NCBI RefSeq assembly: GCF_988243305.1
Contig: NZ_OZ547136.1
Strand: one strand, 5' to 3'
Length of the DNA: 64,000 nucleotides
The position numbers and the translations under genes were made by a program. Below are positions 2,848 to 56,047 of this stretch, piece after piece; within the stretch, counting starts at the first letter, position 1, and every line of letters starts with the position of its first letter. The notes beneath the pieces were generated by a model, which had not been told where the DNA came from, made no database searches, and saw only the letters and a program-made list of their open reading frames with translations.

Positions 2848-4863
2848 TCAGTGAAAAAATTGCCATTGCGTTATGCGATCGCGCAGACGCTCAGTGCGAA
2901 CATCATTAAGTGCGAACAGCGCCTGCGCGGCTTCTTCGCGTTGACGGACCAGTAACAGCTTACGGCCTGAAAGTTTAAGTGTGGTACATAACTGCGCGTC
3001 ACTGGCGTTTTTCTGTAAACGCGCACGCAGCGCCGGTAATGCCAGTTCGCTGGTTTGTAACAGACGCATTAAGCAACCTAACGACGTTAATAGCGGACGA
3101 TGAGCGAAAGCAAAACCGGCCAGTTCAAGCCAGTCGTCGTCAGAAAGGACGGCATCGTTTAGTGGATCAACAGGAAGCATTTCGCCATTCCACTGCGCGA
3201 GAGCTTGCGCATCGCGACGTAAACGGTAATGCTCACGTTCAGCCAGCTGTTTACCCGCATCACTCATCGGTAACAGCGCCATCGCCGTATAGCAACCGCT
3301 GCTGGCTTCACGATGATTACCCATTCGCACCAGCACAAAACCGCAGCGTTGCCAGAAACGCCATAACTCCCCGGTGTAACCAAAACTCACCGAAAGATAG
3401 TCGAGGTCACGCGTATATTGCAAAGCACCAGCAATAAGTTGCCGCCCTGTGCCTTCCCGCTGACGCGCCGGATGAACTGCTATCCGGCTGACCCGCCGTC
3501 CACGCAATGTCGCTGCCAGTGGATTGCTGCCGTGCGCCGCCAGCGACTGGGCCACCAGATTACCCCGAGGGCGACGAAAACCTGCCCATACCGCCTGACT
3601 GAGTTGTTGAGATAATCCACCCTCATCCACCAGCCACAGCGCCCCGGCAATCTCGTTGTCGCCAGCCGCCTGTAAAAAATGTTGCCCTGGTGCATCCATC
3701 ATCCGGCGTAAATCCAGCGGCGAGGTCCGGTAGTGCGCACCAGACAATAGCTGATAAACCTTTAACGGCGTTTCTGGCTCGCTTCGCCATAACGTTTGTT
3801 CAAATGCGGAAATGACGATATTGCCTTGTGGTGTATGGGTGAAGTTTTCATCGTCAAAAACCAGTGCCTCACTAACCATTTTTTCCAGCGGGCATCCCTG
3901 CGCCCAGCGGATCGGCTGTTGTAGTTCAAAACGGTGTAAATGCGGAAAGCGAGCGCAAAATTTCAGCAAAAAACCACGTCCGGTGCCTTCGTAGCCCTGC
4001 ACCGTAGTGGTTAACAACGTTCGAGGAAAACGCGATACCAGTTGATGCAACAACGGCGCAGGTATAGCTGCGGCTTCATCGACCACCAGCCAGTCGGCTT
4101 GCTCATCGCTGGCTAACAAGGCATCCGGTGCAATAAAGCGAAACTTCTCGCCCGCAAATTGTGCCAGTACATCCGTTGCCGCTTTTGCGGGCGCGGTGAC
4201 AATCGCACTGCCCGCAATACGAGAAATGAGTTGCCCTGCCAACGCCGATTTACCGCGCCCACGCGCAGCCGTTACCACCACCACGCCCAATGGCATGGTC
4301 AGTAGCTGCTGTAAGAGTTGCTGTTGTTCTGGTTGTGGTGCGCCGGTCGCGGGGTGCCAGTCAGTACGGGGAGCAAAATGCACCAACGTGAACGGCTGGT
4401 TTTGCCGCCAGAGGATGGCGTCGTTATTCGCCGTAAGTACACGTTTGAGATGCTGGACAAAATGCGGCGTCGCAATAGGGTCAGGGCAATCACTCCAGCG
4501 CAGCGAGTCGGCATCAGGTTGGTTTTCCCACTCTTCCCATACAGGGAGTAACAAAACCAGCCAGCTTCCCGCTTTCAACGTTCCGCTAAGTGCTGCAAAG
4601 GCAGCGGCATCAAAGCCGTGGCGGGCGTCGAATACCGCATGCCGGAATTCGCGCCCAAGTAAAGTTTGTAGCGCCGAGGGAAAACAGTGGTTTTCAGCGA
4701 CTGGCTGCGGCGAAATCCACAGCCAGTCGCCAGGTAAAGCATCACGCAACTTAAGCGCATGATCAAAACACCAACCCTCTTCCCCGCTCAACACCAGCAA
4801 GCGGCGGATCCCTTCACGTTTCATTTGCGCTGTTAATGTGTGAAGCGCAGTCAGTTCAGCCAT
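2848..4863 (-). CDS. tmcA: tRNA(Met) cytidine acetyltransferase TmcA (helicase-like ATPase plus GNAT domain)
   Basis: 671-aa ORF with Walker A GRGKS and a C-terminal acetyltransferase region; conserved synteny. Confidence 0.85.
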   Translation of the reverse strand: MAELTALHTLTAQMKREGIRRLLVLSGEEGWCFDHALKLRDALPGDWLWISPQPVAENHCFPSALQTLLGREFRHAVFDARHGFDAAAFAALSGTLKAGSWLVLLLPVWEEWENQPDADSLRWSDCPDPIATPHFVQHLKRVLTANNDAILWRQNQPFTLVHFAPRTDWHPATGAPQPEQQQLLQQLLTMPLGVVVVTAARGRGKSALAGQLISRIAGSAIVTAPAKAATDVLAQFAGEKFRFIAPDALLASDEQADWLVVDEAAAIPAPLLHQLVSRFPRTLLTTTVQGYEGTGRGFLLKFCARFPHLHRFELQQPIRWAQGCPLEKMVSEALVFDDENFTHTPQGNIVISAFEQTLWRSEPETPLKVYQLLSGAHYRTSPLDLRRMMDAPGQHFLQAAGDNEIAGALWLVDEGGLSQQLSQAVWAGFRRPRGNLVAQSLAAHGSNPLAATLRGRRVSRIAVHPARQREGTGRQLIAGALQYTRDLDYLSVSFGYTGELWRFWQRCGFVLVRMGNHREASSGCYTAMALLPMSDAGKQLAEREHYRLRRDAQALAQWNGEMLPVDPLNDAVLSDDDWLELAGFAFAHRPLLTSLGCLMRLLQTSELALPALRARLQKNASDAQLCTTLKLSGRKLLLVRQREEAAQALFALNDVRTERLRDRITQWQFFH

Positions 4864-4877
4864 CCCTGCCCCGGAAG

Positions 4878-5741
4878 TTAAATGCTTTTACCAAAAGTAT
4901 TGCATTGTGCCGGATCGCCGCTGTCGAAACCACGTTTAAACCAGCTGTAGCGTTGCTGAGAAGTACCATGAGTGAAACTGTCTGGTACTACTCGCCCCTG
5001 ACTTTGCTGTTGTAAACGGTCATCGCCGATGGCCTGCGCCGCATTCAGCGCCTCTTCCAGATCGCCGGTTTCCAGAACGCCTTGCTGCTGCATGCTATGC
5101 CCCCAGACACCGGCAAAACAGTCGGCCTGGAGTTCCATACGCACAGATAAGCGGTTCACTTCCGCCTGCGTCGCGTTTTGTTGCAGTTGACGAACTTTCG
5201 GCTCGATGCCTAACAGTTTCTGCACATGATGACCGACTTCATGGGCGATAACGTACCCCTGGGCAAAATCGCCATCCGCGCCAAGTTTGTCTTTCATGTC
5301 ATCATAGAAGGAGAGATCGATATAAACCGTGCCATCCGCCGGGCAATAGAACGGTCCCATAATGGACTGGCCCGCCCCGCAGCCGGTGCGCGTCATTCCA
5401 CGGTACATGACCAGCTTCGGTTGCTGATAGGTTTTACCCATCTTCTCGAATTGCTGTCCCCAGGTGTCTTCCGTGGTTGCCAGAATCACCGAAGTGAATT
5501 TTGCGGCTTCGTCTTCATTAGGACTAATTGACCGTGTTGATTGCTGTTGGGAAACCGGCTGTCCGGTCATCAACCCGGTTAAATCAACGCCATAGTAGCC
5601 TGCAACCAGCACGATTATCAGTAAAATCAGCCCGCCTTTACCGCTTGGCAGGCGAAAACCTGGACCGCCCATTGACGGACCACCAGAGCTGTTGCGCCTG
5701 TCTTCAACATTGTCACTTTCACGTCGCCCTTGCCAACGCAT
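4878..5741 (-). CDS. ypfJ: putative zinc metallopeptidase YpfJ
   Basis: 287-aa ORF with an N-terminal TM segment and an HEVGHH zinc-binding motif. Confidence 0.8.
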
Positions 5742-40210: not shown

Positions 40211-41725
40211 GTGTATTTGATATCGTATGTGGCAACAAAAAATGGAGTTACAATCTTGAAAGTAAGCGAGTTATCTAGCCAAATTGGCCGACTTTACGGC
40301 TTAAACAACATCAACATAATTATGGGCCGAAACGGTGCGGGAAAAAGTCGTTTCCTTCGTGATATCGAACAAACAATCAGCCAGAACAAGCAGCAATTTT
40401 ATGTCCGGTATGTAAGTCCAGAGCGAGCAGGATCGTTCAAGCGTGATGGCACCGTCCTCACAAATATGAGCGACAACCCCGAATGGCTGAGGCACACTCG
40501 GGCAGTTAATCAGGCAAGCAACTTCAAAGCTGCATCGGCTATGCTATTTCGCGAGGCCGAGACGCTTTACTTACGTCGACTTGCCAATACTCCGGAAATT
40601 CGAACTGATCTAACGCGAAACTTTCAGACAGACCGATTAAGTAAAATTAATCAGCTTCTCACTAACATTTCGCTCGAGATGGGTAATGTCGATTATGAGT
40701 TTCGATCACTTGTAGATGGTCAGATTATTGATCCGGCCCAAATCAGTAGCGGTGAATCGGAAGCGGTTGCATTAGCCGCGGAAATCATCTATTTCTTCGA
40801 CACAATAGATCCGGAGAAATTCAACGTACTCCTCCTCGATGAGCCTGATGTACATCTGCACCCCGACCTCCAAGCTAGACTGGGCAAGCTGATAATCAGT
40901 ATGCTCGACGAATTTAGAACACACGCGAACAGTATTGCCATATGCTTATCCACCCATAGTTCCCCGCTCGTCTGTTCTCTTGCCGCCTCCCCATATGTAT
41001 CAATCGGCACGAAGAGCTTTGCAGTGAATGAAATCTCATTGATACCGGCCAGCGATGAACTTCGAAAGATTGCACCATTCTTCGGGCACCCCCTATCGCT
41101 TTCTCTTAGCGAAGACGCTGCATTAATTTTGGAAGGAGAGGACGACGAACGAGTCTGGCAACAAGCGGCCAGAACATCACAGGGTCGAATAAAAATCTTT
41201 CCCGTACTAGCAGGTAGCGTAGATCAACAGAGTCAACTTGAGGATTTTTGCGTAGACCTCCTTAGTACACTCTATGACAATCCAATCGCCTTTTCCCTTC
41301 GTGATGGCGATGGTGTAATCAACGAGTCGCTTGAACATCGCCTACCTCTTAAACGCTATCGCTTACGATGCTACGCTATCGAAAATGTTCTTTTGACTGA
41401 TTCATGCCTTGCAGTAATGAATGTTACATGGGTGGAATTTGTAGACGCAGCCAAAAAATGGGTTGAGGATAATCAAACACACTCCGACATAGCGTTGATT
41501 GCAGAACTAATGGAATCGAACGACCGATTGCGTCACAAGAAGATCAAGAAAATCCGCCAACTCGTCTGTGCTATTGTTGAGTGTAAAAAACCTTGGGAGG
41601 TAGTAGTTGGACAAGCAATCGGGGCATTGACCAGAGAAGACCTTGAAAACTCGAATATGTTGATCGATTTTCTTGGAGGAGAGATGGTCAGCGACGTCAT
41701 CTTCAGGGACGCAATAAACCCATGA
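40211..41725 (+). CDS. ABC-type (AAA_21-like) ATPase with C-terminal TOPRIM/DUF4435-like acidic region; candidate OLD/PARIS-like anti-phage nuclease (accessory)
   Basis: Walker A GRNGAGKS, signature-like ISSGESEA, Walker B/D-loop LLLDEPDVHLHPDLQ, H-loop LSTHS; C-terminal about 200 aa carry LEGEDDE and RDGDG acidic motifs; no TM segments; probable true start TTG at 40256 preceded by ggag. Confidence 0.55.
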   Translation: MYLISYVATKNGVTILKVSELSSQIGRLYGLNNINIIMGRNGAGKSRFLRDIEQTISQNKQQFYVRYVSPERAGSFKRDGTVLTNMSDNPEWLRHTRAVNQASNFKAASAMLFREAETLYLRRLANTPEIRTDLTRNFQTDRLSKINQLLTNISLEMGNVDYEFRSLVDGQIIDPAQISSGESEAVALAAEIIYFFDTIDPEKFNVLLLDEPDVHLHPDLQARLGKLIISMLDEFRTHANSIAICLSTHSSPLVCSLAASPYVSIGTKSFAVNEISLIPASDELRKIAPFFGHPLSLSLSEDAALILEGEDDERVWQQAARTSQGRIKIFPVLAGSVDQQSQLEDFCVDLLSTLYDNPIAFSLRDGDGVINESLEHRLPLKRYRLRCYAIENVLLTDSCLAVMNVTWVEFVDAAKKWVEDNQTHSDIALIAELMESNDRLRHKKIKKIRQLVCAIVECKKPWEVVVGQAIGALTREDLENSNMLIDFLGGEMVSDVIFRDAINP

Positions 41726-41740
41726 GAATGACCTGATACT

Positions 41741-42136
41741 ATGACCACGATTGATCCGCCCTCATGGTATCAGTATTTATTTTATAACCCGCCTCTCAAT
41801 ACACCAAGAGATTGCGGTAAAGTGGAGCAGCATGATTACCAGCTTTATCTGGCGATAAATGATATTGAGCATACGAAAACGAAAGCAATGTCATCTAAGA
41901 CCAATAGTATCTGCGAGCAGTTCCATAAAACGATACTGAACGAGTTTTATCAGGTGACGTTCCGCAAAAAGTTATATGATGATCTTGAAGCATTACAATC
42001 GGTTCTTGATGAATGGCGGGTTCACTATAATAATGAGCGAACCCATCAGGGAAAAATGTGCAGTGGCCGAACGCCGATGGAAACGTTACTTGATGGAAAG
42101 CACATCTGGGATGAGAAAAACTTAAGCCAGATGTAA
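41741..42136 (+). pseudogene. remnant of a DDE (rve integrase-core) transposase, C-terminal fragment
   Basis: 131-aa ORF containing ...TNSICEQFHKTILNEF...WRVHYNNERTHQGKMCSGRTPMETL, the characteristic C-terminal segment of rve-type transposases; no N-terminal HTH or full DDE triad. Confidence 0.6.
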
Positions 42137-42229
42137 TCTGACAGATACCTTTATAAATAGCCGGTAATTGTCAGATCAGGTCTGATCTTATACAACTTAA
42201 CTGTGTTATGAGCAATACTGAGGATAGAT

Positions 42230-43000
42230 ATGGAACCAGAGAAATTTGCTGAAACTGCAATAGGATTTACCAAAAGCCCTCTTGGTATCATTGCACTCTT
42301 TATTGTTCTCGTTTATGGATTTGCCTCTTTCGTCGTTGGCTTTGGTAATGGCTTATCAGAGCATATAGCTCCCCTTATTTATTTCATGGTTTTCTTTCCT
42401 GTCATTGTGTTTCTTGGCTTTCTCTGGCTTGTTGCGAAACATCATAATAAGCTTTACGGGCCGTCAGATTTCAAAGATGAAAATAATTTTTTAAGAGCGC
42501 AAATAGCTACAGCAGCATCATTGACCGCCGCCACAGCAAAACAGCCTGAAAATAGTGCAGGGGTCACTGAAAGCCAACTGCGAAAAATCGTCAACGTTGT
42601 ATCCAATGCAAAACGGCAGAGTAAGCATGAAAAATGGCGAAATCGTATTTTATGGGTGGATGATCGACCAGAAAATAATGTTTACGAAAGACAGGCATTT
42701 GAGGCACAGGGAATAGAGTTCGCTTTAGCTCTTTCAACTGACGAAGCCTTAGAATTGTTAAAAACAAATAAGTTTGCAGCTATTATTTCGGATATGGATC
42801 GCAAAGAAGGGGCGCAAGAAGGTTATGTCTTACTAGAAAGATTACGCGCAATGGGAGACAAAACTCCTTTTATGATCTATGCGTCCTCAGATCTACCAGA
42901 GCACAAGAAAATGGCGAGAGAAAGAGGTGCAATTGGCTCCACTAATCGAGCAGAAGAACTCTTTCAAATTGTCATGGGTGCGATTACCAATGGCTCATAA
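42230..43000 (+). CDS. membrane-anchored stand-alone receiver (REC/CheY-like) domain protein (accessory)
   Basis: ATG preceded by gagga; two predicted TM helices near the N-terminus; C-terminal about 120 aa align by eye to CheY (ILWVDDRPEN / ISDMDR / TPFMIYASS); AT-rich codon usage. Confidence 0.55.
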   Translation: MEPEKFAETAIGFTKSPLGIIALFIVLVYGFASFVVGFGNGLSEHIAPLIYFMVFFPVIVFLGFLWLVAKHHNKLYGPSDFKDENNFLRAQIATAASLTAATAKQPENSAGVTESQLRKIVNVVSNAKRQSKHEKWRNRILWVDDRPENNVYERQAFEAQGIEFALALSTDEALELLKTNKFAAIISDMDRKEGAQEGYVLLERLRAMGDKTPFMIYASSDLPEHKKMARERGAIGSTNRAEELFQIVMGAITNGS

Positions 43001-43220
43001 CAAAGCCATTAAATTCGCCCCCTACGGCTACGGTTGCCGGGCGCTCACAACGGCCAGTATCTCATTTGTCGATTTGATCGATCTCATTGTAAGCACTTCC
43101 GGCTAGACTATTTTGGAATACCGCCATTTTGTTGGTAATGGCTTTTATCTTTAGGCCATAGCCGATGTTATAGAGTTACGGCCTTAAAAATAGAAGTCAT
43201 ACACTCAATGAAAAACCAAT

Positions 43221-43250
43221 AAAAAATGCCAGTCAGCAAACTGACTGGCA
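43221..43250 (-). terminator. intrinsic terminator of guaA
   Basis: On the minus strand tgccagtcagtttgctgactggcatttttt: 10-bp stem plus a U-run immediately after the guaA stop. Confidence 0.7.
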
Positions 43251-43294
43251 TTAAAGTTAGTTGGAAAGGCTTAATTTACTATTTATAGCCAGTC

Positions 43295-44872
43295 CTACTC
43301 CCACTCAATGGTAGCTGGCGGCTTGCCGCTGATGTCATACACCACGCGGGAAATACCGTTCACTTCATTGATAATGCGGTTGGAAACGCGACCGAGGAAG
43401 TCATACGGCAGGTGCGCCCAGTGTGCGGTCATAAAGTCGATGGTTTCGACAGCACGCAGAGAAACAACCCAGTCATACTTACGACCATCGCCCATTACGC
43501 CAACAGAACGTACTGGCAGGAAGACGGTGAACGCCTGGCTGACTTTGTCGTACAGGTCCGCTTTACGCAGTTCTTCAATGAAGATGGCGTCAGCACGGCG
43601 CAGCAGGTCACAGTACTCTTTCTTCACTTCACCCAGAACACGAACGCCAAGGCCTGGTCCCGGGAACGGGTGACGGTACAGCATGTCGTACGGCAGGCCC
43701 AGCTCCAGACCAATCTTACGCACTTCGTCTTTGAACAGCTCTTTCAGCGGTTCAACCAGGCCCATCTTCATCTCTTTCGGCAGGCCGCCCACGTTGTGGT
43801 GAGATTTGATGACGTGTGCTTTACCGGTTGCAGAAGCAGCAGATTCGATAACGTCAGGGTAGATAGTGCCCTGCGCCAGCCACTTCACGTCTTCCAGTTT
43901 CAGCGCTTCTTCATCGAATACTTCAACGAAAACGCGCCCGATGATTTTACGTTTTGCTTCCGGATCATTTTCGCCAGCCAGCGCTGACAAGAAGCGATCT
44001 TCTGCCGGTACATGAACAATGTTCAGACCAAAGTGATCGCCAAACATATCCAGAACCTGCTCTGCTTCGTTGAGACGCAGCAGGCCGTTGTCGACGAATA
44101 CGCAAGTCAGGTTTTTACCGATAGCGCGGTGCAGCAGCATTGCAGTCACGGAGGAATCCACGCCACCAGAGAGGCCGAGGATCACTTTATCGTCGCCTAC
44201 CTGCTCGCGGATGCGAGCTACGGCGTCGTCGATAATTTTCGCTGGCGTCCACAGGGCTTCACACTGGCAGATATCACGCACAAAACGCTCCAGCATGCGC
44301 ATACCCTGGCGGGTGTGAGTCACTTCCGGATGGAACTGTACACCATAGAAGCGTTTTTCTTCGTTAGCCATAATGGCAAACGGGCAGCTTTCGGTGCTGG
44401 CTACGGTGACGAAGTCGGACGGGATAGCGGTAACTTTATCGCCGTGGCTCATCCAGACATCGAGCAGCGGTTTACCGTCTGCAGTCAGCGCATCTTCGAT
44501 ACCGCGAACCAGTGCGCTGTCGTTTACGACTTCAACCTGCGCGTAGCCAAATTCACGTTCGTTAGAGGCTTCAACGTGACCGCCCAACTGCATTGCCATG
44601 GTCTGCATGCCATAGCAAACGCCGAATACCGGTACGCCTGCTTCAAAGACATACTGCGGCGCACGCGGGCTGTTTTCTTCGGTGGTGCTTTCCGGGCCGC
44701 CGGAAAGAATAATGCCGCTTGGGTTGAAGTCACGAATTTGTGCTTCTGTCACATCCCACGCCCACAGTTCGCAGTAAACACCCAGTTCACGCACGCGGCG
44801 CGCAACCAGTTGAGTGTACTGAGAACCGAAGTCCAGAATGAGGATGCGATGCTTATGAATGTTTTCCGTCAT
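43295..44872 (-). CDS. guaA: GMP synthase (glutamine-hydrolysing)
   Basis: 525-aa ORF with an N-terminal class-I glutamine amidotransferase and a C-terminal ATP-pyrophosphatase (SGGVDSS). Confidence 0.95.
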
Positions 44873-48004: not shown

Positions 48005-51000
48005 TTACTGGAAGCAGGTCACCAGACCCGGTTTATTCATTAGCGTGATACTACAATCCTGTGCTCCAGTGCCTTCGTCCATTCCACACTGTTGAGAGGA
48101 CAAATAAGGAAAACTTGGTGAAGACGGCCATCCCAGTGAATTAAAAACAGTGTGCAACAACTCTAATTCATTGTATGTCGGTGCATTTTCTATGCTGCCA
48201 CACTGCCTTGCAATATCCCATTTACTGGCATCAATGATATGTGCAGAAGCCCAGTTTTCGTAGTTAATAATCGGTGAGGATACGGGATTAGCCCCGGACG
48301 GCAATTCTGTCGTTAACAACGGTCGATGTAGCGATTTACCATTCACCACTACAGTGTCTGCCATATGTCCCCAAAAGTGCGCCGAGGAAACATTCGGGCT
48401 GGTTGGTACCGTAAAAATAGCGTCCAGCGTGTCTGTCGCGGAAGCGTAATTAGCCAGAGTAACCGTCAGTGGCGTTTTATAACCAGGGGTATTATCCTGG
48501 CGGAGCGTAAAACTTGCCGTCCCATCCGCGCCTGTCATGCCACTAATGGTATTACCGCTTTCACTCAGCGTAACAGCCGAACCAGATAACGGCTGAACGA
48601 TGAGATCGTCCATCGCCACCACATCACCATACAACGTCGCCCCAGCGTTACGCGGCGATGCATCGCCACGTTTCAAAGTAAATTCCACATTCGGTACCGT
48701 ATTCCCGGCGCTGTCTTTCACCGTCACGGTAACGGGCATGGCTTCGCCTTTTTTCACTTTCGCCGCCTGAATAGCTGCGTCAAACGCTGTTGAGGTCAGT
48801 GTGACGCTGGAAACCGTTGCGCGCGCAGACACCAGACACGCCTGATAAGCGGCATTACCATTCAATGTCGTTGTGCCATCTTTCATATTGAGCGACTGAT
48901 TTTTACCATCTGTAGTCTTATCCTGCGCCCACCAGTAATAATAAACTGACCAGCCAGTTTCCGTCGTAAGGGTGTTATTGGGATAACGTTGATACAGTGA
49001 CTTCATATCGCTGAGCAACGGTTGCCGGGCTTCCTCACAAGGGCTGAGGCTGGCATTTGCTTTAGTGGTTGACGAAAAATAGGGCCAGTCCTCATTATTG
49101 TTATTGGTTTTATTTACCCCGGAGGTCGATGGCAGCTCCTTCCACAATTTCGGTCGTTCAAAGACGGTTCCATTTGCCGCTGTCACCGTTTCTGGCATAT
49201 GACCCCAGTAGTCGGCATCCTGGGCGTCAGGGCTGGTGACCACGGTAAATATCAGGTCCAGGTTTGACGTGATCTGCGGATCTTGTGCAAGCGAGACCGT
49301 AAACGGCGTTGCCAGGCCGGTGGTGGCGTTTTGCGTAACATTGAACGTCACTGTGCCATCACTGCCGGTAAAACCAAGCCATTTTGCCGTATCCTGAGCA
49401 AAGGAAATACGGGTTGCTGTCGGTGTGACGACATCTACAATAAGATCATCTGCCAACGATGAGGGCCTAATTCCTGAACGACTTTTCGCCTGCGCCCGCT
49501 GAAGCGTCACGCCCTCACCACTCACCAGGTTGCCATTTTGGTCTTTTACTGTCACGACTAACGGGATTGTCTCGCCCTTTTTCGCCGATGCCGAAGGTGT
49601 GCCGCCGTTACTGGCGGTTTTCGTCTCATCAAATGCTACTGAAGTCAGGGTAACGCTTGACGGCTTAGAGTGAGGCTGTGCCAGGCAGAGCATTAGAGCA
49701 ACCGGAGAGAGTGCGGATGATGCTCGTCCCGTGCTTAGGTTAAAGACCTGATAATACCAGGAGCTACCATTGGAGTTAAGTAATTCATAAATCCACCAGT
49801 TTCCTGACGCTATCGGCAACCCCAGATCTTTCGTTAACGCTCCGTTTGGGTGATCGTCATATAACCCCTGCAATTCGCTGAGGCGCGGTTGATATTCCAG
49901 CGAACAATCTGCCGTCGCTTTTTGAGTACTATATATATATGACCATGTCTCATTATTACCGTTTACCGAGCTCCCCGTAGTCGCTTCCGCTGCCAGTAAT
50001 GGGCGCTTGAAGGTCACGCCTGCCGAACTGGTAAACGTTTCCGGCATATGGCCCCAGTATTTCGCTTTTGGCGAATCCGGGCTGGTTATCACCGTGAAAA
50101 TGACATCCAGCGTGACGCTTTTCGAGGTATCGCGCATGAGTTCTGCGCTGAGCGGCGTTGACAGCCCATAACTGCTATTCTGGCTGACCTCAAACGTAGC
50201 TTTACCATCGCTCCCTGTCTTCAGAAGAGCCTGCGTCCCATCCCCATACAAGATTGACGTTACCCCAGTAGGTTCCACAGGTATGATGGTAAGATCATCT
50301 GCAGAGGCATCGTACGCAGCTTTAGCGCGGTTCAGCGCAGTCCCTCGTTTAAGGTTAAAGCTGGCACCTGGCAGTGGATTGCCTGCGCTATCTCGCACCG
50401 TAACCGTCATCGGGATAACCTCTCCCTTCTTCGCTGTTGCGCTGGGCCTGCCATCATTGCTGGCCGTTTTCGTTGCATCCTCCGCCGTTGAGGTCATTTC
50501 AATAGAAGCCGCCTCTGGATGAGGGTTTACCAGGCACAGCATTAATGCCGAGGTGGTTGAAGACGCTCTTCCACTTGATCCATTTAACAGATAAATATAT
50601 TGATCGTACCAGTTACCCGCATATGCCACCATGTCGTAAGCCCACCAGTAGCTATTTACCGGAATACCCAGATCGGTCTTTATCGCACGACTTGGGTGTT
50701 CGTCGTACAATGCCTGTAGTTCGCTTAACAGTGGTTGATAATGTACATCGCACCCGCTTTTATCGATATCCCCCTTTGTTGCCGATCTCAACACGGCCCA
50801 CTCTTCATTGTCTTCTATAAACGACTGGCCCGACGATCTTTCAGCAGAGAGTAAGGGGCGTTTGAAGGCAGTACCAGAACGCGTAGTGAACGTTTCCGCC
50901 ATATGCCCCCAGTAACTTGCCAGGGGGGTATCCGGGCTGGTTATCACGGTAAACATCACGGGTAATTTGTTGGATTCCAGGCTCGACTGATAGGCCTGAG

Positions 51001-54000
51001 CGTACACATTGGTTACCAGGCCTATAGAATCATCCTGCTTTACCGTAAACGTGGCTGTCCCGTCTGCACCTGTCACCGCATAAAGGGAGATTGATGGAGT
51101 ATCCACTCTTGCCGACGTTCCCGCAGCGTTGATTACAGAGATAGTTCTGTTCGACAACTGTACATTCTGGCGATTTGTCGATCCTTCACGTTTGAGAATA
51201 AACGGAACATTTGGTACGACATTTCCCTGCGCATCTTTTGTCACCACGCGAATCACCGCGTCGTCACCTTTTTTCCGTTTTAGTGCGCTGAGGGTTTCGT
51301 CAACTTTGACAAATTGTGTCGCATCGTTCGCTTCAACAATAATGTGGCTGGTCACCGCCACTGGGGTAGCCCGACAACTTAGCAGTCCTATACTGCTTGA
51401 CATGACCTCCGTTCCATCACCCGTTTTTAACGAAACCGCTTTAAAATTAAATGTTTGAGTGTAATAGGCAACAACCGTACTGGAGATATAGGCGCGTGAT
51501 ACAGGCCATCCCGTAACGTCATGTATTGGCACGTAACCTTCATCGGCATACAGTGACTCCAGCTCACTTTCAATCGGGACATATCCTGCACCGCAACCAT
51601 TTACAGATGTGTTGTTCGACTGGTCCGGCGAGAACAGTGACCAGCTCTCTCCATCTTCCTGAAAAGAGCTTCGACTGGTTGTAACGGAAAGCTCATCTTG
51701 CAATAACGGTCTTTTATAAATAAGCCCGCCTGCACCGGTCATCGTTTCGGCCATATGCCCCCAGAATTTTGCTTTAGGGGTATCGGGGCTGGTTATCACC
51801 GTAAAGACTACCGGAAGCATTGATTTTACGTTATTATCTGTATCCAGCATGGCGGTCAGTTCGGTTTTTAAACCCGTGGTATTGTCCTGTTTCAGTGCAA
51901 GTGTTGTCGTACCATCTGCGCCGGTAACGCCATAAATCAGTGCTGTTGTTGAGGAAAAATTACTCTGCGTGTTACCCCAGGCATCCGTCACGATGAGCGC
52001 GCCTGCTGTCACCGTTGTAGACGCATTTGCCCGATTGACGCTAAGGTTACGTTTAAGCGTAAACGCGGTATTTCCCACCGGGTTACCCTGCGAATCTTTA
52101 GTGGTCACGCGAACCACGACTTCTTCCCCTTTTTTCGCTTTGACAACATTATTCGTACTGTCAAATTTTGTGGGGTCCGCAGCCTCAAGAACGATTTGGC
52201 TAGCCTTGACGATCGGCGTCGTCTGGCAGGTAAGCAGTTCTTTTGTGGCCGATGGAATTATCGAACTGGTGCCTGAACTGAGATTGACGGCCTTGAAGTC
52301 ACGCTGTTCCAGACTACTGCTGGCTGTCGTGCTGGTAAGGTAACTTGAGGCGACGGGCCAGCCCTGAACCGTTTTCATCGCATTGCCACGGTTGGCTTCA
52401 TACAATGACTCCAGCCCGGCCTGAGAGGGAACATATTCACTACCACAACCATTAGAGGATGTGCTTGTCGCCTGAGTTTGGGTAAATTGCGCCCAGTCCT
52501 CATTATCTTCTGCAATCGCTGTTCGACCCGACGTACTGGATAACTCTTTCAACAATAATGGGCGTTTAAAGACCGTTCCATCCGCAGCCGTCACCGTTTC
52601 CGGCATATGCCCCCACATTTTCGCTTTATTGCTGTCCGGGCTGGTGACAACGGTAAAAATGGTATCGAGGGTCGCTTTTTTCGTTGTGTCTGAATAGAGC
52701 GCAGCGGTCAGCGACGTTTTTGTGCCATGGGTATCCGGGCGGGTAATAGTGAGAATTTTAGTGCCATCGCTGCCGGTCATCGCGCTGTATGCTGCGGCGG
52801 TATCATTGAGCGAAGTTTCATCCGCCAGGCCACTATTGATCACAACCGGCGCAACCAGCGCATCACCGCTACCGGCAATGTGTTTTTCGTTTGATCGTGT
52901 ATAACCATCGCCACGCTTCAGGGTAAAAGGCATATCACCCAATGGATTGCCCTGAGCATCTTTTACCGTCACCTTCACCTGTAGCGTTTCGCCTTTTTTC
53001 AGCTTCGCCGCATTTGCTGCCGCGTTCCACTGCGCCGGGTCCACCACTTCCAGCGTAATGCTGCTGGCAGGATTGTTAGCCGTCGTCAGGCAACTGACAT
53101 AAACCGCCGTGCTACCGCCAACGGTCCGCGCGCCATCGTTGAGGGCTATGGTGTAGTAATGCGGCACCTGATCCGCGGGCGAACTGCTCCAGTAGGGCTG
53201 ACGCTGCGTTGGCCAACCGTGTACCGTTTGAACGGCGTTACCGCTGTTAGCATCATAGAGCGCGTTAAGCTGGGAACGGCGTGGGAGCATATTGGCACCA
53301 CAGCCACCTTTACTGGTGCTGGAAGTGTTGGCCTGGCTAACGCGCGACCACACTTCGTTATTTTCCGTTAATGTGCCGTCCGGGCTGGACACTTCCGCAG
53401 CCAGCCGGGGTCGGGCAAAGGTTAATGCATCGACGGTAATCGTCTCATCCATATGCCCCCACATCTGCGCGCCAACCGCATCCGGACTGGTGAGCGTAGT
53501 GAAAATCACATTGTAATTAACAGTATTGGGAATATAGGAGTTTACAGGCGCAATATTCAGCGGCGTCGCTAAGCCCACACCTTGCGGTTGCTTAATTTCA
53601 ACAGTAGCAAAACCCTGCGCATCCGTAGTACCTGCATAGACTAAAGACGGTTGCGATGTTCCGTAGAGCGTGCCATTCATCTCGATTGCGCCGCGGGTTG
53701 GATCATCGAAACCCGTGGTCTGCCCCTGACGATTTTTCCCCATATCTTTCGTGATGGTGAACGCGGTATACGGCACGGGCGCATTATTCAAGGCATTAAA
53801 GGTGCGTACCGTCATGGTAATCGTTTCACCCACTTTAGCCTGCGCTCTGCTGCTTGTGGAAACATCATGATCGGTGTTCGCAGCAATCTGGGCGACCATC
53901 TCATTGCCCGAACAAGAAAGGTAGTTTTGCTTAAAGCCGGAATAGGTGTCGATGTTGCCCGTGGCCAGGTTCACCGACGCGTGCGACGTCTCTTCCACCG

Positions 54001-56047
54001 CACTAAGATACGCTTTTTGCAACGTTGGCCAGCCATATTCGGTGCCGATGACATTGGCTGGATGTGCGGCAAACAAACTGTGCAATGAGCTTTGGCTCGG
54101 AATATGACCTAAACCACACTCAGCCTGCATACTGCTATTCTGATCAAACAGCGCCCAGTCTTCGTTATTTTCCCGCACTGCTCCCAGTTCGTTGTCGGTT
54201 TCATCCGCCAGCCGTGGGCGTTTAAAGATATTATTCGCTTCAATAATGCCTAACATATGTCCCCACATCCGCGCTTTGTCGGAATCAGGGCTGGTGATCA
54301 CCGTAAAAATAACGTCTTTCTCATCCGAGGCGGTAAAATCACTGCGCATTTTCGCGGTGATGTGTGTTTTCACCCCCACGCCGCCTGGCTGGGTCAGCGT
54401 CAGAGAGGCCTCTCCGTTAGCATCAGTGATCCCTTCATAGGTATGGGCGTCAACTTTGCGAACGTTACTGCCACCATCAATTTGTACCGGGTGCGTCTCC
54501 CACGCAGCGTCAGTTTGATTCTTACGGTTAACACCGTCATCCAGATGCAGCGAAAAGTAGTAGTAAGCCAGCGGCTGATCGTTGTTCTTGCTATCGGTAA
54601 TCGTCAGGCGTAAAGAAGCCTCTTCCCCCACCTTTACTTTCATCGCTTTTATCGTCGAATCATAACTGCCCGGCGTCAGTACCAGCTTCGGTTCAACATC
54701 GGGCGCTTCTTTATCGACACAGCTCACAATAAACGTCGTATCGTCCGGTTTTTGCGCTTCGCTGCGGTTCGAAACATCCGCCGCATGGTGCTGGCCACTC
54801 ATCCCCGCCAGTGATGACCAGTAGAAATTACCCTGCATCGGCCAACCAGCCACATCCTGCACTGACGTTGGCACCACCGTCGCCAGCGCACCGAACTGAC
54901 GCATTCCGGGCAAAATGTCGCAATGTTTATCCGCGCCGCTCCAGGTAAAGGTGGACCAGGTTTCATTGTGATCGTTAACCGTACCGTTTTCATTATCGAC
55001 TTCCGCCGCCAGTTTTGGTCGACTAAAAGTGTAATCACGGGCCTTCAGCGTATCGGGCATATGACCCCACATTGTAGCCTGCGGGACATCCGGGCTGGTG
55101 AGGACGGTAAAGATCACTGCCGTTTCACTGGCCTGAGCAATACCCGCGAGGCTCGCGACCAACGGCGTTTTTACACCAAGGCCGTTGGCCTGGGTGACCG
55201 TAACCGTGGCAACACCATTCGCATCGGTAGTACCACGATATTCCGTCGCGGTGGTGGTTAATTCGGTCGTGCCCAGTTTTACCGGCGCAGTATTGTTCAC
55301 TACACCCTGGCGGTTTTCAGCATCTTTGCGTTTGATAACAAAAGGAATATTCCCCACAACATTACCGACGCAATCTTTGGTGGTGACCGTTAACGTGATA
55401 CTGCCGCCAACCGTCGTTTTCGCCGCACCGGAGGATTCGTCATAGCCCGCGGCGCTGACGGAAATAAGGTCACCCTGCGCGGGCGCAATCTTCAGCGTCA
55501 CTTTCTGATCGGCGAGCGTCAGAACACTTTCATAGGGATAGCCCGTCGAGGTGAGTAAATATAACAGCGGCATGGTCTGTTGGGGATCAGGCTGCGCCCA
55601 GGCGACCAGCGAACGCCCGGCAAGTCCCTGAGCGCAAAACGAGCGATCTGCGACTGGCTGTGGGTCCAGTAAGGTGTCCGGCGTCGCGGCATCCGCCCAA
55701 ACTAAAGATACTGTCGGTGGCGTTTGGTTTTCCCAACGTGGGGTGGAAATGATATCGCCTTCTCTGTCTTGCGGATTGGTGACGAGCAATTTAGAGACGC
55801 TAATATCCGCGCTGAATTCACTCGGTTTAGCGGTAAACGCTACCTCATGCGTCTTTGCAGGATCCAGAAAGACACTGCCCTGGTAGACGGGTATGCTGGC
55901 ACTGTCGGCGGTGGGCACGGTACCGTTAAATTCGCCGACCGTATCTGAAGAGTCTTGCCATGCAGATTCTGCCCATGACCGCCCAGGCAGCATTGCGCTT
56001 ATCAGCAATGCGCATAACACAAGGATTTTATTCAGGGTCAGGGACAT
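48005..56047 (-). CDS. giant repetitive surface protein, RatA/RatB-like (Ig-like plus lectin-like repeat modules); CS54-like island
   Basis: 2680-aa uninterrupted ORF with a signal peptide and nine repeats each containing (I/V)FTV(I/L)TSPD...(M/Y/F)WGHM...RP.L...NE.W...CG...L..LY...GWP....YW; no frameshifts seen. Confidence 0.8.
48100..55700 (-). repeat. intragenic tandem repeat array, about 9 units of roughly 0.80-0.86 kb
   Basis: Plus-strand string catatgNcccca (reverse complement of the WGHM codons) recurs at about 48362, 49196, 50045, 50900, 51752, 52604, 53450, 54254 and 55057, giving spacings of 803-855 bp, all multiples of 3. Confidence 0.8.

Follow-up and report, generated by a model that had tools for sequence, protein, structure and literature searches.

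The DNA analyzed here, referred to as the window, is a 64,000-nucleotide stretch of contig NZ_OZ547136.1 (NCBI RefSeq assembly GCF_988243305.1), and it is a segment of the Escherichia coli chromosome with the gene order ppk-ppx-pdeF-yfgG-yfgH-yfgI ... guaA-guaB-xseA. The open reading frame (ORF) at positions 42230-43000 on the plus strand is a real gene that encodes a two-helix transmembrane (TM) anchor joined to a CheY-like receiver (REC) domain, and we refer to the gene and its product as TM-REC. The ORF runs from an ATG start to a TAA stop, with a Shine-Dalgarno sequence (GAGGA) 6 nt 5' of the start, and its coordinates are identical to those of the coding sequence (CDS) annotated by the NCBI Prokaryotic Genome Annotation Pipeline (PGAP), for which the product name is "response regulator". 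With high confidence, we regard TM-REC as an autonomous member of a kinase-independent receiver clade that is unrelated to the ATPase encoded beside it. The features of the gene and its product, with the evidence for each in parentheses, are as follows.

42230..43000, plus strand: complete TM-REC gene, 256 aa, WP_085458948.1 (ORF list, PGAP CDS, 2177 homologs agreeing in start and length, dN/dS)
42278..42439, plus strand: conserved two-TM (2TM) hairpin, TM1 residues 17-41, short loop, TM2 residues 43-70 (hydropathy, AF2, family alignment)
42437..42490, plus strand: juxtamembrane motif KHHNKLYGPSDFKDENNF, residues 70-87, part of the TM module (family alignment)
42482..42634, plus strand: helical linker, residues 85-135 (AF2 helices 85-103 and 114-125, low confidence)
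42644..42991, plus strand: CheY-like REC domain, residues 139-254 (Pfam, AF2, Foldseek, profile matches to solved receivers)
42659..42664, plus strand: acidic pocket D144-D145, equivalent to CheY D12/D13 (hhalign)
42791..42802, plus strand: acceptor D188, equivalent to CheY D57, and the clade-specific loop D188-M-D190-R191 (hhalign)
42881..42889, plus strand: β4-α4 loop A218-S219-S220, with Ala at the canonical T/S87 site (alignments to 6ont, RcsC, and CheY)
42941..42949, plus strand: β5-α5 loop T238-N239-R240, with Arg at the canonical K109 site (ungapped extension of the hhalign alignment)

Profile and structural comparisons both identify the C-terminal domain as a receiver. Pfam PF00072 (Response_reg) matches residues 140-235 over model positions 1-94 of 111, with an i-Evalue of 2.1e-7 and a score of 31.5 bits. 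In the AlphaFold2 (AF2) model, residues 139-254 form a (βα)5 domain in the order β1α1...β5α5, with a pLDDT (predicted local distance difference test) score of 80-91, and when the model was compared with the PDB by Foldseek, the best 50 listed matches were all response-regulator or receiver structures. Isolated receiver domains gave TM-scores of 0.74-0.86 and root-mean-square deviations of 1.9-3.2 Å over ~120 aligned residues, and a profile of the TM-REC family matched solved receivers with E-values of 1.8e-7 to 1e-2. An earlier note on this DNA, made by eye from the sequence, had described a CheY-like segment and had named the lack of a significant receiver-fold hit as what would count against it; the Pfam, profile, and Foldseek matches are significant and the description holds. 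The note had also stated that the protein has no DNA-binding or enzymatic output, which agrees with the Pfam scan, where no output domain is present beyond the TM module. NCBIfam returned only sub-threshold generic receiver matches for the TM-REC protein.

Active-site positions were mapped by hhalign against E. coli CheY, and residues were counted in 247 sequences, of which 193 are full-length relatives and 54 have this REC subtype within a different architecture. The acidic triad is retained among the full-length relatives, with D144 present in 192/193 and both D145 and D188 in 193/193. ILWVDDRPEN had previously been proposed as the acidic pocket and ISDMDR as the phospho-acceptor region, and both placements are borne out by the alignment of D144/D145 with CheY D12/D13 and of D188 with CheY D57. 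TPFMIYASS, proposed as the T/S switch region, is indeed that region, but the switch residue is Ala218, and the two serines S219 and S220 come after it. Position 218 is A in 139, T in 30, and S in 20 of the 193 relatives (72%, 16%, and 10%, respectively), i.e., the canonical Thr is not conserved, and the Ser at +2 from this position is conserved (S220 in 160/193). The alignment to CheY ends at S237=Y106, and R240 is equated with K109 by ungapped extension, with the register in the loop uncertain. At position 240, R is found in 124 relatives (64%), D in 20, N in 15, and K in 9 of 193, and S also occurs, which leaves no conserved canonical Lys; the position is likewise unconserved (D/N/R/S) in the other-architecture carriers, and T238 and N239 are conserved in the TM-REC family. 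By fold, profile, and acidic triad, TM-REC is a member of the receiver superfamily, with two of the five canonical residues not conserved.

The canonical Thr and Lys are replaced by a residue set that is the clade's own, consisting of R191, E193/G194, S220, T238, and N239, all on active-site loops. R191, three residues past the acceptor, is invariant in 247/247 sequences, and W142, P147, N150, T170, S187, G198, P213, and T238 are nearly invariant across the 193 relatives and 54 other carriers. The clade-specific conserved residues sit on the β1-α1, β3-α3, β4-α4, and β5-α5 loops at the active-site face. Because the strongly conserved REC residues are all found on active-site loops, the pocket must be under selection rather than degenerate: it is remodeled but strongly selected, and TM-REC is no decayed pseudo-receiver. 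TM-REC has in common with the single-domain regulators CheY and Spo0F the fold, the acidic pocket, and the acceptor Asp; unlike them, it is membrane-anchored, has Ala for Thr87, a variable Lys109 site, and an invariant Arg at acceptor+3, and its β3-α3 loop is two residues longer than in canonical CheY/Spo0F-type receivers. Position 190 is Gly in 153/193 relatives (79%), the Kluyvera protein included, and the E. coli/Klebsiella allele has D190 (codon 42797-42799), a lineage-specific change inside the most conserved loop, two residues past the acceptor Asp.

In the N-terminal region, Kyte-Doolittle analysis gave two strong hydrophobic peaks centered at about residues 27 and 58, and AF2 placed membrane helices at residues 17-41 and 43-70. 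The two hydrophobic helices described by the earlier note (residues 18-38 and 47-68) are therefore present, and the membrane anchor is upheld. TM2 is followed by four basic residues, and the loop between the helices has a length of ~5-9 residues; by the positive-inside rule, these properties indicate an N-in/C-in hairpin, with the remainder of the protein predicted to be cytoplasmic. In the family alignment, invariant columns are packed most densely in the hairpin, and conservation along the protein is highest over both TM helices and the juxtamembrane motif KHHxKLYGPSDFxxExNF, within which H71, K74, Y76, G77, P78, S79, D80, F81, E84, and N86 are invariant. A linker helix, AASLxAAxAK, accompanies the REC module in other architectures, and in TIR, STAND, and other carriers the matched stretches begin at TM-REC residues 81-102.

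A word-indexed search returned 2177 relatives of TM-REC. The best 120 of the 2177 are 212-287 aa in length (nearly all 252-287), are 66-99% identical to TM-REC, and are found in Klebsiella, Kluyvera, Acidithiobacillus, Pseudomonas, Dickeya, Pectobacterium, Vibrio, Nitrosomonas, and other hosts. A scan of one genome per species identified 29 loci, which also include Chlorobi, Bacteroidota, and Kiritimatiellae at 53-88% identity, and HMMER, run exhaustively against 1.84 billion cluster representatives, identified 4224 clusters at E≤1e-3. Overall, the family shows 53-90% identity across Pseudomonadota, Bacteroidota, Chlorobi, and Kiritimatiellae. The ratio of nonsynonymous to synonymous substitution rates (dN/dS) between TM-REC and the Kluyvera copy is 0.30. 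Against the Chlorobium, Sulfuritalea, and Acidithiobacillus copies dS is saturated and dN is 0.07-0.10; strong purifying selection, and not recent transfer alone, therefore accounts for the cross-phylum likeness. TM-REC is a single gene, complete in itself, that is highly conserved and scattered horizontally. A literature search by accession found no paper naming WP_085458948 or the ATPase WP_085458947. The "response regulator" annotation is what was already known, and the 2TM-REC family of stand-alone proteins, its conserved TM module, a sister nuclease family (below), and the clade-specific active site appear to be undescribed.

In Rosenbergiella nectarea, the copy, which is also beside guaA, is N-terminally truncated and frameshifted, and the copy in a Nitrosomonas metagenome-assembled genome is frameshifted (these two copies are at L022 8001-8629 and L024 8001-8608). 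The TM-REC gene is thus occasionally lost by decay. Among AFDB50 models, many uncharacterized "response regulator" proteins of 210-270 aa can be aligned to almost the entire TM+REC model with 21-46% identity. Their hosts are among Actinobacteria, Cyanobacteria, and Alphaproteobacteria and include a haloarchaeon, and the architecture of a lone receiver on a TM anchor may form a far wider class that is unstudied.

The following features, all on the same strand, surround or include TM-REC.

40211..41725, plus strand: ATPase gene (PGAP start 40256; WP_085458947.1), AAA_15/AAA_21 with a weak DUF4435/TOPRIM-like tail
41741..42136, plus strand: insertion sequence (IS) remnant between the ATPase gene and TM-REC, 131-aa C-terminal part of an IS481-family transposase (NCBIfam 9e-23)
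41811..43309, plus strand: co-traveling DNA, consisting of the 3' part of the IS481 remnant, TM-REC, and the spacer to the guaA 3' end (blastn)

In E. coli K-12, the yfgI-guaA gap is 92 bp, and the window therefore carries an insertion of ~3.3 kb at this position, which we found in 27 of 5,426 complete E. coli genomes. The ATPase has its best PADLOC matches to PDC-M01A (1e-17) and AriA (3e-15) and also matches AriAB, PtuA, and GajA. This resemblance to defense ATPases, the same-strand position 0.5 kb from TM-REC, and the presence of both genes in the same 27 genomes are the points that favor the proposal of the earlier note, in which TM-REC is a sensor or membrane effector partner of the AAA_15/AAA_21 ATPase with its TOPRIM/DUF4435-like tail, the two genes forming one defense system. 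However, both genes are at least 99.6% identical among the 27 genomes, so they represent one inherited near-clonal block and a single evolutionary event, and the IS481 remnant lies between them. In Kluyvera, the IS481 remnant and TM-REC (90% protein identity) are found beside guaA without the ATPase, and the shared DNA starts at 41811, inside the remnant. By blastn, exactly the span 41811-43309 is shared at 89% with the Kluyvera loci L034, L036, and L037 and with contig L035; the identity to Klebsiella is 98.5%. The Kluyvera remnant, also upstream of TM-REC, is 69% identical to that of the window, and the remnant and TM-REC therefore traveled together in Enterobacterales. Klebsiella has the same island, but with the ATPase split by an IS3 element while TM-REC is intact at 99% identity.

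Outside this island, tblastn with the ATPase found it to be absent from 29 other species-level TM-REC loci and from further fetched contexts, and it is absent also from the TM-REC contexts later annotated with Pfam; the co-occurrence is confined to the E. coli/Klebsiella island, with none among ~40 other loci. One Vibrio strain has an AAA_15/AAA_21 + DUF4435 (PARIS-like) pair ~6 kb from TM-REC, which could be taken in favor of the two-gene proposal, but IS copies and unrelated genes lie between the pair and TM-REC, the region is of a general defense/cassette character, and sister strains lack the pair. Assignment of TM-REC to a two-gene ATPase-nuclease system of the PARIS AriA/AriB, Gabija, Septu, or PDC-M01 type was rejected, the adjacency being limited to the E. 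coli/Klebsiella island. The two-gene proposal is largely refuted by these comparative data, and we consider it extremely improbable; the ATPase is an unrelated neighbor in the same insertion hotspot. The removal of this false lead means that the adjoining ATPase deserves analysis on its own, and it looks like an independent, single-gene OLD/PARIS-like defense candidate. A search for att-type direct repeats around the 3.3 kb island found only short chance repeats.

Receiver domains are the textbook output of histidine-kinase signaling. As the earlier note had stated, there is no histidine kinase nearby: none is annotated within ±20 kb of TM-REC in E. coli, and the same annotation contains no second receiver. 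All-versus-all clustering of 435 neighboring ORFs in 30 loci detected no family common to more than four loci, and when 105 flanking proteins at 21 loci were surveyed with Pfam, no family occurred more than twice and no histidine kinase family was among those listed. In the local neighborhoods of ~40 other TM-REC loci there is no ATPase, histidine kinase, or recurrent neighbor. Neither the E. coli ±20 kb annotation nor the Pfam-annotated contexts contain cas genes, and no MoxR, vWA, or VMAP/iSTAND core was found in the window region or at other TM-REC loci. The earlier note had held that its view would be refuted if the family occurred only in contexts unrelated to the ATPase and with a conserved kinase partner; the contexts are essentially unrelated, but no conserved kinase partner was found. 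A classical two-component pair was rejected, as no histidine kinase is within ±20 kb and none recurs in the examined loci. The TM-REC gene is a self-sufficient unit.

The gene surroundings differ from host to host. In Buttiauxella (rnt/grxD) and in a metagenomic proteobacterium (Amj/GntR regulator), TM-REC is a lone insertion between housekeeping genes. Other contexts are rich in mobile elements or defense genes. In Vibrio cyclitrophicus (L040-L043), it is found in a cassette-array-like region with many small unknown ORFs, TacA/acetyltransferase, ParE/Phd, HEPN, and IS3 copies, and in Dickeya it is found near ParE/RelB and HNH or inside a DUF927-primase element. In Pseudoalteromonas, two group II intron reverse transcriptases and a KAP nucleoside triphosphatase (NTPase) surround it.

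TM-REC could instead be an orphan regulator or a sink for phosphoryl groups (of the DtcB or CheY type), phosphorylated by membrane histidine kinases encoded elsewhere on the chromosome, a role that would correspond to the "signaling decoy" that the earlier note had mentioned. The acidic triad and acceptor Asp are intact, as such a role would require, and a membrane tether would bring TM-REC beside membrane kinases, but the canonical Thr and Lys on which the usual phospho-switch relies have not been conserved. Receivers of a single domain, like phosphate sinks, have well-known precedents, and in the anti-phage defense system Detocs, which contains receivers, DtcB is proposed to be a stand-alone phosphate buffer and some DtcC variants have TM effectors (bioRxiv 10.1101/2023.01.24.525353). 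Kinase-regulator pairs co-evolve, yet TM-REC moves singly across phyla at 53-90% identity and has no kinase near it in the ~40 loci, and the other members of its clade occur in TIR, caspase, and VMAP proteins rather than in two-component operons. We therefore consider the orphan or sink explanation quite unlikely. Detocs (Rousset et al.) has the DtcA kinase in its operon and an N-terminal REC, whereas TM-REC has no kinase, a C-terminal REC, and no PADLOC match. With no DtcA and no second receiver nearby, the reversed domain order, and the lack of a PADLOC match, membership of TM-REC in Detocs was rejected.

The receiver of TM-REC, together with part of the helical linker, recurs at 44-65% identity in other architectures. 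A Pfam scan of 20 of these carriers identified TIR_2 in five, Peptidase_C14 in two, ParA/CbiA in two, and nSTAND1, FGE-sulfatase, tubulin/FtsZ, and tetratricopeptide repeat (TPR) arrays once each. The REC modules of STAND, caspase, and TIR proteins are 50-65% identical and have the common signature WVDDRPxNN / SDMGRxEG..EGY / GSTN. On the Rhizobium phaseoli plasmid pRphaN671d (L063), the REC (44% identity) is inside a 1509-aa protein with a SAV_2336 N-terminal domain (VMAP), the gene for which lies directly after a MoxR ATPase gene and near a trypsin-like peptidase gene, in a complete MoxR-vWA/VMAP-type ternary locus that includes a hypothetical protein. A DNA/RNA non-specific endonuclease and a WYL protein are also encoded near this locus. 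A ParA-TIR-REC gene is flanked by patatin, ThsB-TIR, and TIR_2 genes; for TIR-REC and caspase-REC, the contigs are short and the contexts uninformative. Kinase-independent receivers have been described in exactly these NTPase-centered conflict systems by Kaur et al. in 2020 and 2021 (PMC7159879, PMC8195603). The VMAP/iSTAND2/TERNS3 receivers of those studies belong to the same REC sequence clade as TM-REC and likewise have no histidine kinases, but they are part of multi-gene NTPase-centered systems, whereas TM-REC stands alone on a 2TM module.

The presence of the same REC-plus-linker in small effector-like proteins and in giant NTPase proteins raises a further explanation, in which TM-REC is a homotypic adaptor: its REC would dock on the same REC of a distant STAND, VMAP, TIR, or caspase protein and recruit the 2TM effector, comparable to the effector-associated domains of Kaur et al. 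No such partner adjoins TM-REC in any locus, however, and no second, diverged REC copy was detected in E. coli at blastn (nucleotide-level) sensitivity. An adaptor would also not need an invariant catalytic-type pocket, and we regard this explanation as very unlikely.

Among known systems with a comparable layout, Cam1, Csx23, and Cap1 likewise combine a small TM hairpin with a cytoplasmic α/β sensor domain, and ligand-driven oligomerization is reported to depolarize or permeabilize the membrane. Their sensors are of the CARF, SAVED, cyclic-mononucleotide (cNMP)-binding, or β-barrel type, with an adjoining cyclase, whereas TM-REC has a REC and no such cyclase was found. PycTM and Cap15 are also ligand-gated TM effectors of cyclic-nucleotide defense. 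The closest published likeness in the order of domains is Cam2 (Hoikkala, Graham & White 2024, PMC11229360), which likewise has an N-terminal TM region and a C-terminal REC without a histidine kinase; its REC is predicted, as a prediction only, to sense cyclic triadenylate (cA3) and to perturb the membrane, like Cam1 and Csx23. Cam2 resides in type III CRISPR loci (26) and has a TM region of variable length, whereas TM-REC has a fixed, conserved 2TM and no cas genes in the examined contexts, and the two are likened here by architecture and published description. The cREC domain (PF20274; Iyer et al. 2021, PMC7824862) is likewise a divergent receiver that is never found with histidine kinases, and phosphoester ligands have been proposed for it. 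We rejected cREC membership for TM-REC, which matches cREC_REC with E=0.0073, compared with 2.1e-7 for Response_reg, and has no NAD+/ADP-ribose or RNA-repair neighbors.

By analogy with these systems, we propose a mechanism in which the receiver gates the membrane module. The Asp188 pocket would bind Mg2+ together with either a phosphoryl group or a ligand that bears phosphate or is a nucleotide, and, as there would be no dedicated kinase, a small phosphodonor or nucleotide-type signal would load it. The change at the REC surface would be relayed via the helical linker to the 2TM hairpin, and the oligomeric state of the hairpin and the integrity of the membrane would be altered, as predicted for Cam2 and shown for Cam1 and Csx23. 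We put this specific REC-gated mechanism forward tentatively, as possible but somewhat unlikely in its details.

The 2TM module, with its KLYGPSDF motif, is also joined to other C-terminal domains. In a sister family of ~265 aa, found by a search that returned 1573 proteins, part of them TM-REC members, the same 2TM module, with the juxtamembrane motif kept, is followed by a PD-(D/E)xK-like domain in which E139, D167, and E180 are invariant and K182 nearly so. The sister family's C-terminal domain is modeled at pLDDT >90, and its best fold matches are weak matches (E ≈ 2e-3) to PD-(D/E)xK nucleases, which include the R2 endonuclease domain, XisH, SfsA, BstEII, the Avs4 nuclease, and Cdn1/Can2. 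The sister proteins have no Pfam match, are annotated everywhere as "hypothetical", and occur in Aeromonas, Vibrio cholerae, Scalindua, Bryobacteraceae, and Pullulanibacillus. Because the REC is joined to TIR, caspase, ParA, STAND, and VMAP proteins, and the 2TM module to a nuclease-like domain, both halves of TM-REC appear to be exchangeable parts of the bacterial conflict repertoire. In PHROGs, the best match is that of the TM module to phrog_26238, of unknown function, with weaker matches of the REC region to other unknown-function families. The IMG/VR viral contig L048 encodes, at 3451-4882, a 213-aa TM-module protein with another C-terminal domain, directly downstream of a repressor with a CI/LexA-like helix-turn-helix and an S24 peptidase, a position typical for prophage exclusion genes.

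The apparently active nuclease on the same TM module, with its invariant acidic residues, is the reason for the main rival explanation, in which the polarity is reversed: the 2TM hairpin would be the anchor or sensor and the REC the effector, e.g., a high-turnover phosphatase or phosphotransferase acting at the membrane on acyl-phosphates, nucleotides, or phosphoproteins. Kaur et al. class kinase-independent receivers among the "effectors" of VMAP/iSTAND systems (PMC7159879, PMC8195603), and receivers are generally held to be mechanistically related to phosphatases, as was argued for cREC (PMC7824862), but to our knowledge no receiver acts as a stand-alone toxic enzyme. The active-site loops, including the new invariant Arg191, are the most conserved part of the REC, which also speaks for this arrangement; the TM helices, however, are conserved beyond the needs of a simple anchor, and in the TIR-REC and caspase-REC fusions the other domain is the obvious effector. 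On balance, the reversed arrangement is unlikely.

The best overall explanation is that TM-REC, one of a large family of inner-membrane proteins of ~256 aa, is an autonomous, kinase-independent REC switch on a membrane module, drawn from the bacterial conflict repertoire, which we hold to be plausible though short of an even chance; taken by itself, a role in conflict or defense is evenly balanced. A number of observations weigh against this explanation. Many TM-REC genes are in ordinary housekeeping surroundings rather than in defense islands, none of the phage records carries a TM-REC gene, and no PADLOC model matches the TM-REC protein at E≤1. Carriage by plasmids was rejected, as the sole full-length match in PLSDB is a 4.9 Mb chromosome filed there and there is no genuine plasmid among the matches. 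A sensor-effector without an adjoining signal generator requires input from elsewhere, and without the canonical Thr and Lys, the chemistry of phosphotransfer may be impaired. The window allele may be atypical, with D190 in place of Gly, and the apparently active nuclease of the sister family suggests that the TM module could serve to anchor or to sense, with the activity residing in the C-terminal domain, the opposite of the proposed polarity.

More speculatively, the 2TM-REC family and the sister 2TM-nuclease family may together represent a new class of single-gene immune or abortive-infection systems, in which a kinase-independent REC would sense a phosphodonor or nucleotide linked to infection, which CBASS-like systems or phages might make in trans, and gate a two-helix membrane effector; the receiver domain would then be a general small-molecule sensor in bacterial immunity. 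This extension is doubtful. If the autonomous REC switch is correct, the receiver fold would extend to another signaling logic, i.e., small-molecule or nucleotide sensing beyond two-component systems. TM-REC would then offer an experimentally tractable E. coli representative of the Cam2-type "TM-REC effector" idea.

The DNA flanking TM-REC also bears on a possible use of guaA as an integration site. In five independent contigs (L035 and L044-L047), similarity to the window ends exactly at 43309, a few codons inside the guaA 3' end (43295-43311), and beyond this point there is either a relaxase/KAP-NTPase element (L035) or prophage-like DNA (IMG/VR contigs L044-L047). The shared stop at 43309 makes the guaA 3' end look like a recurrent site-specific integration site in Enterobacterales. 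TM-REC as viral cargo was rejected, the IMG/VR matches being host flank beside elements integrated at the guaA 3' end, and contig L035 was rejected as a plasmid copy, since its gene is in the host flank beside such an element.

Rfam gave no match to an RNA or leader upstream of TM-REC, where similarity to distant orthologs begins only 25 nt before the ATG. One further feature was found on the 3' side of the gene.

43123..43142, plus strand: terminator-like hairpin and T-run, 3' of the TM-REC gene (consensus scan only)

Further along the window, a gene for a 2680-aa adhesion-domain protein (48005-56047, minus strand) is inserted after xseA, and beyond it in the source genome are SinI and the intimin-like inverse autotransporter SinH.

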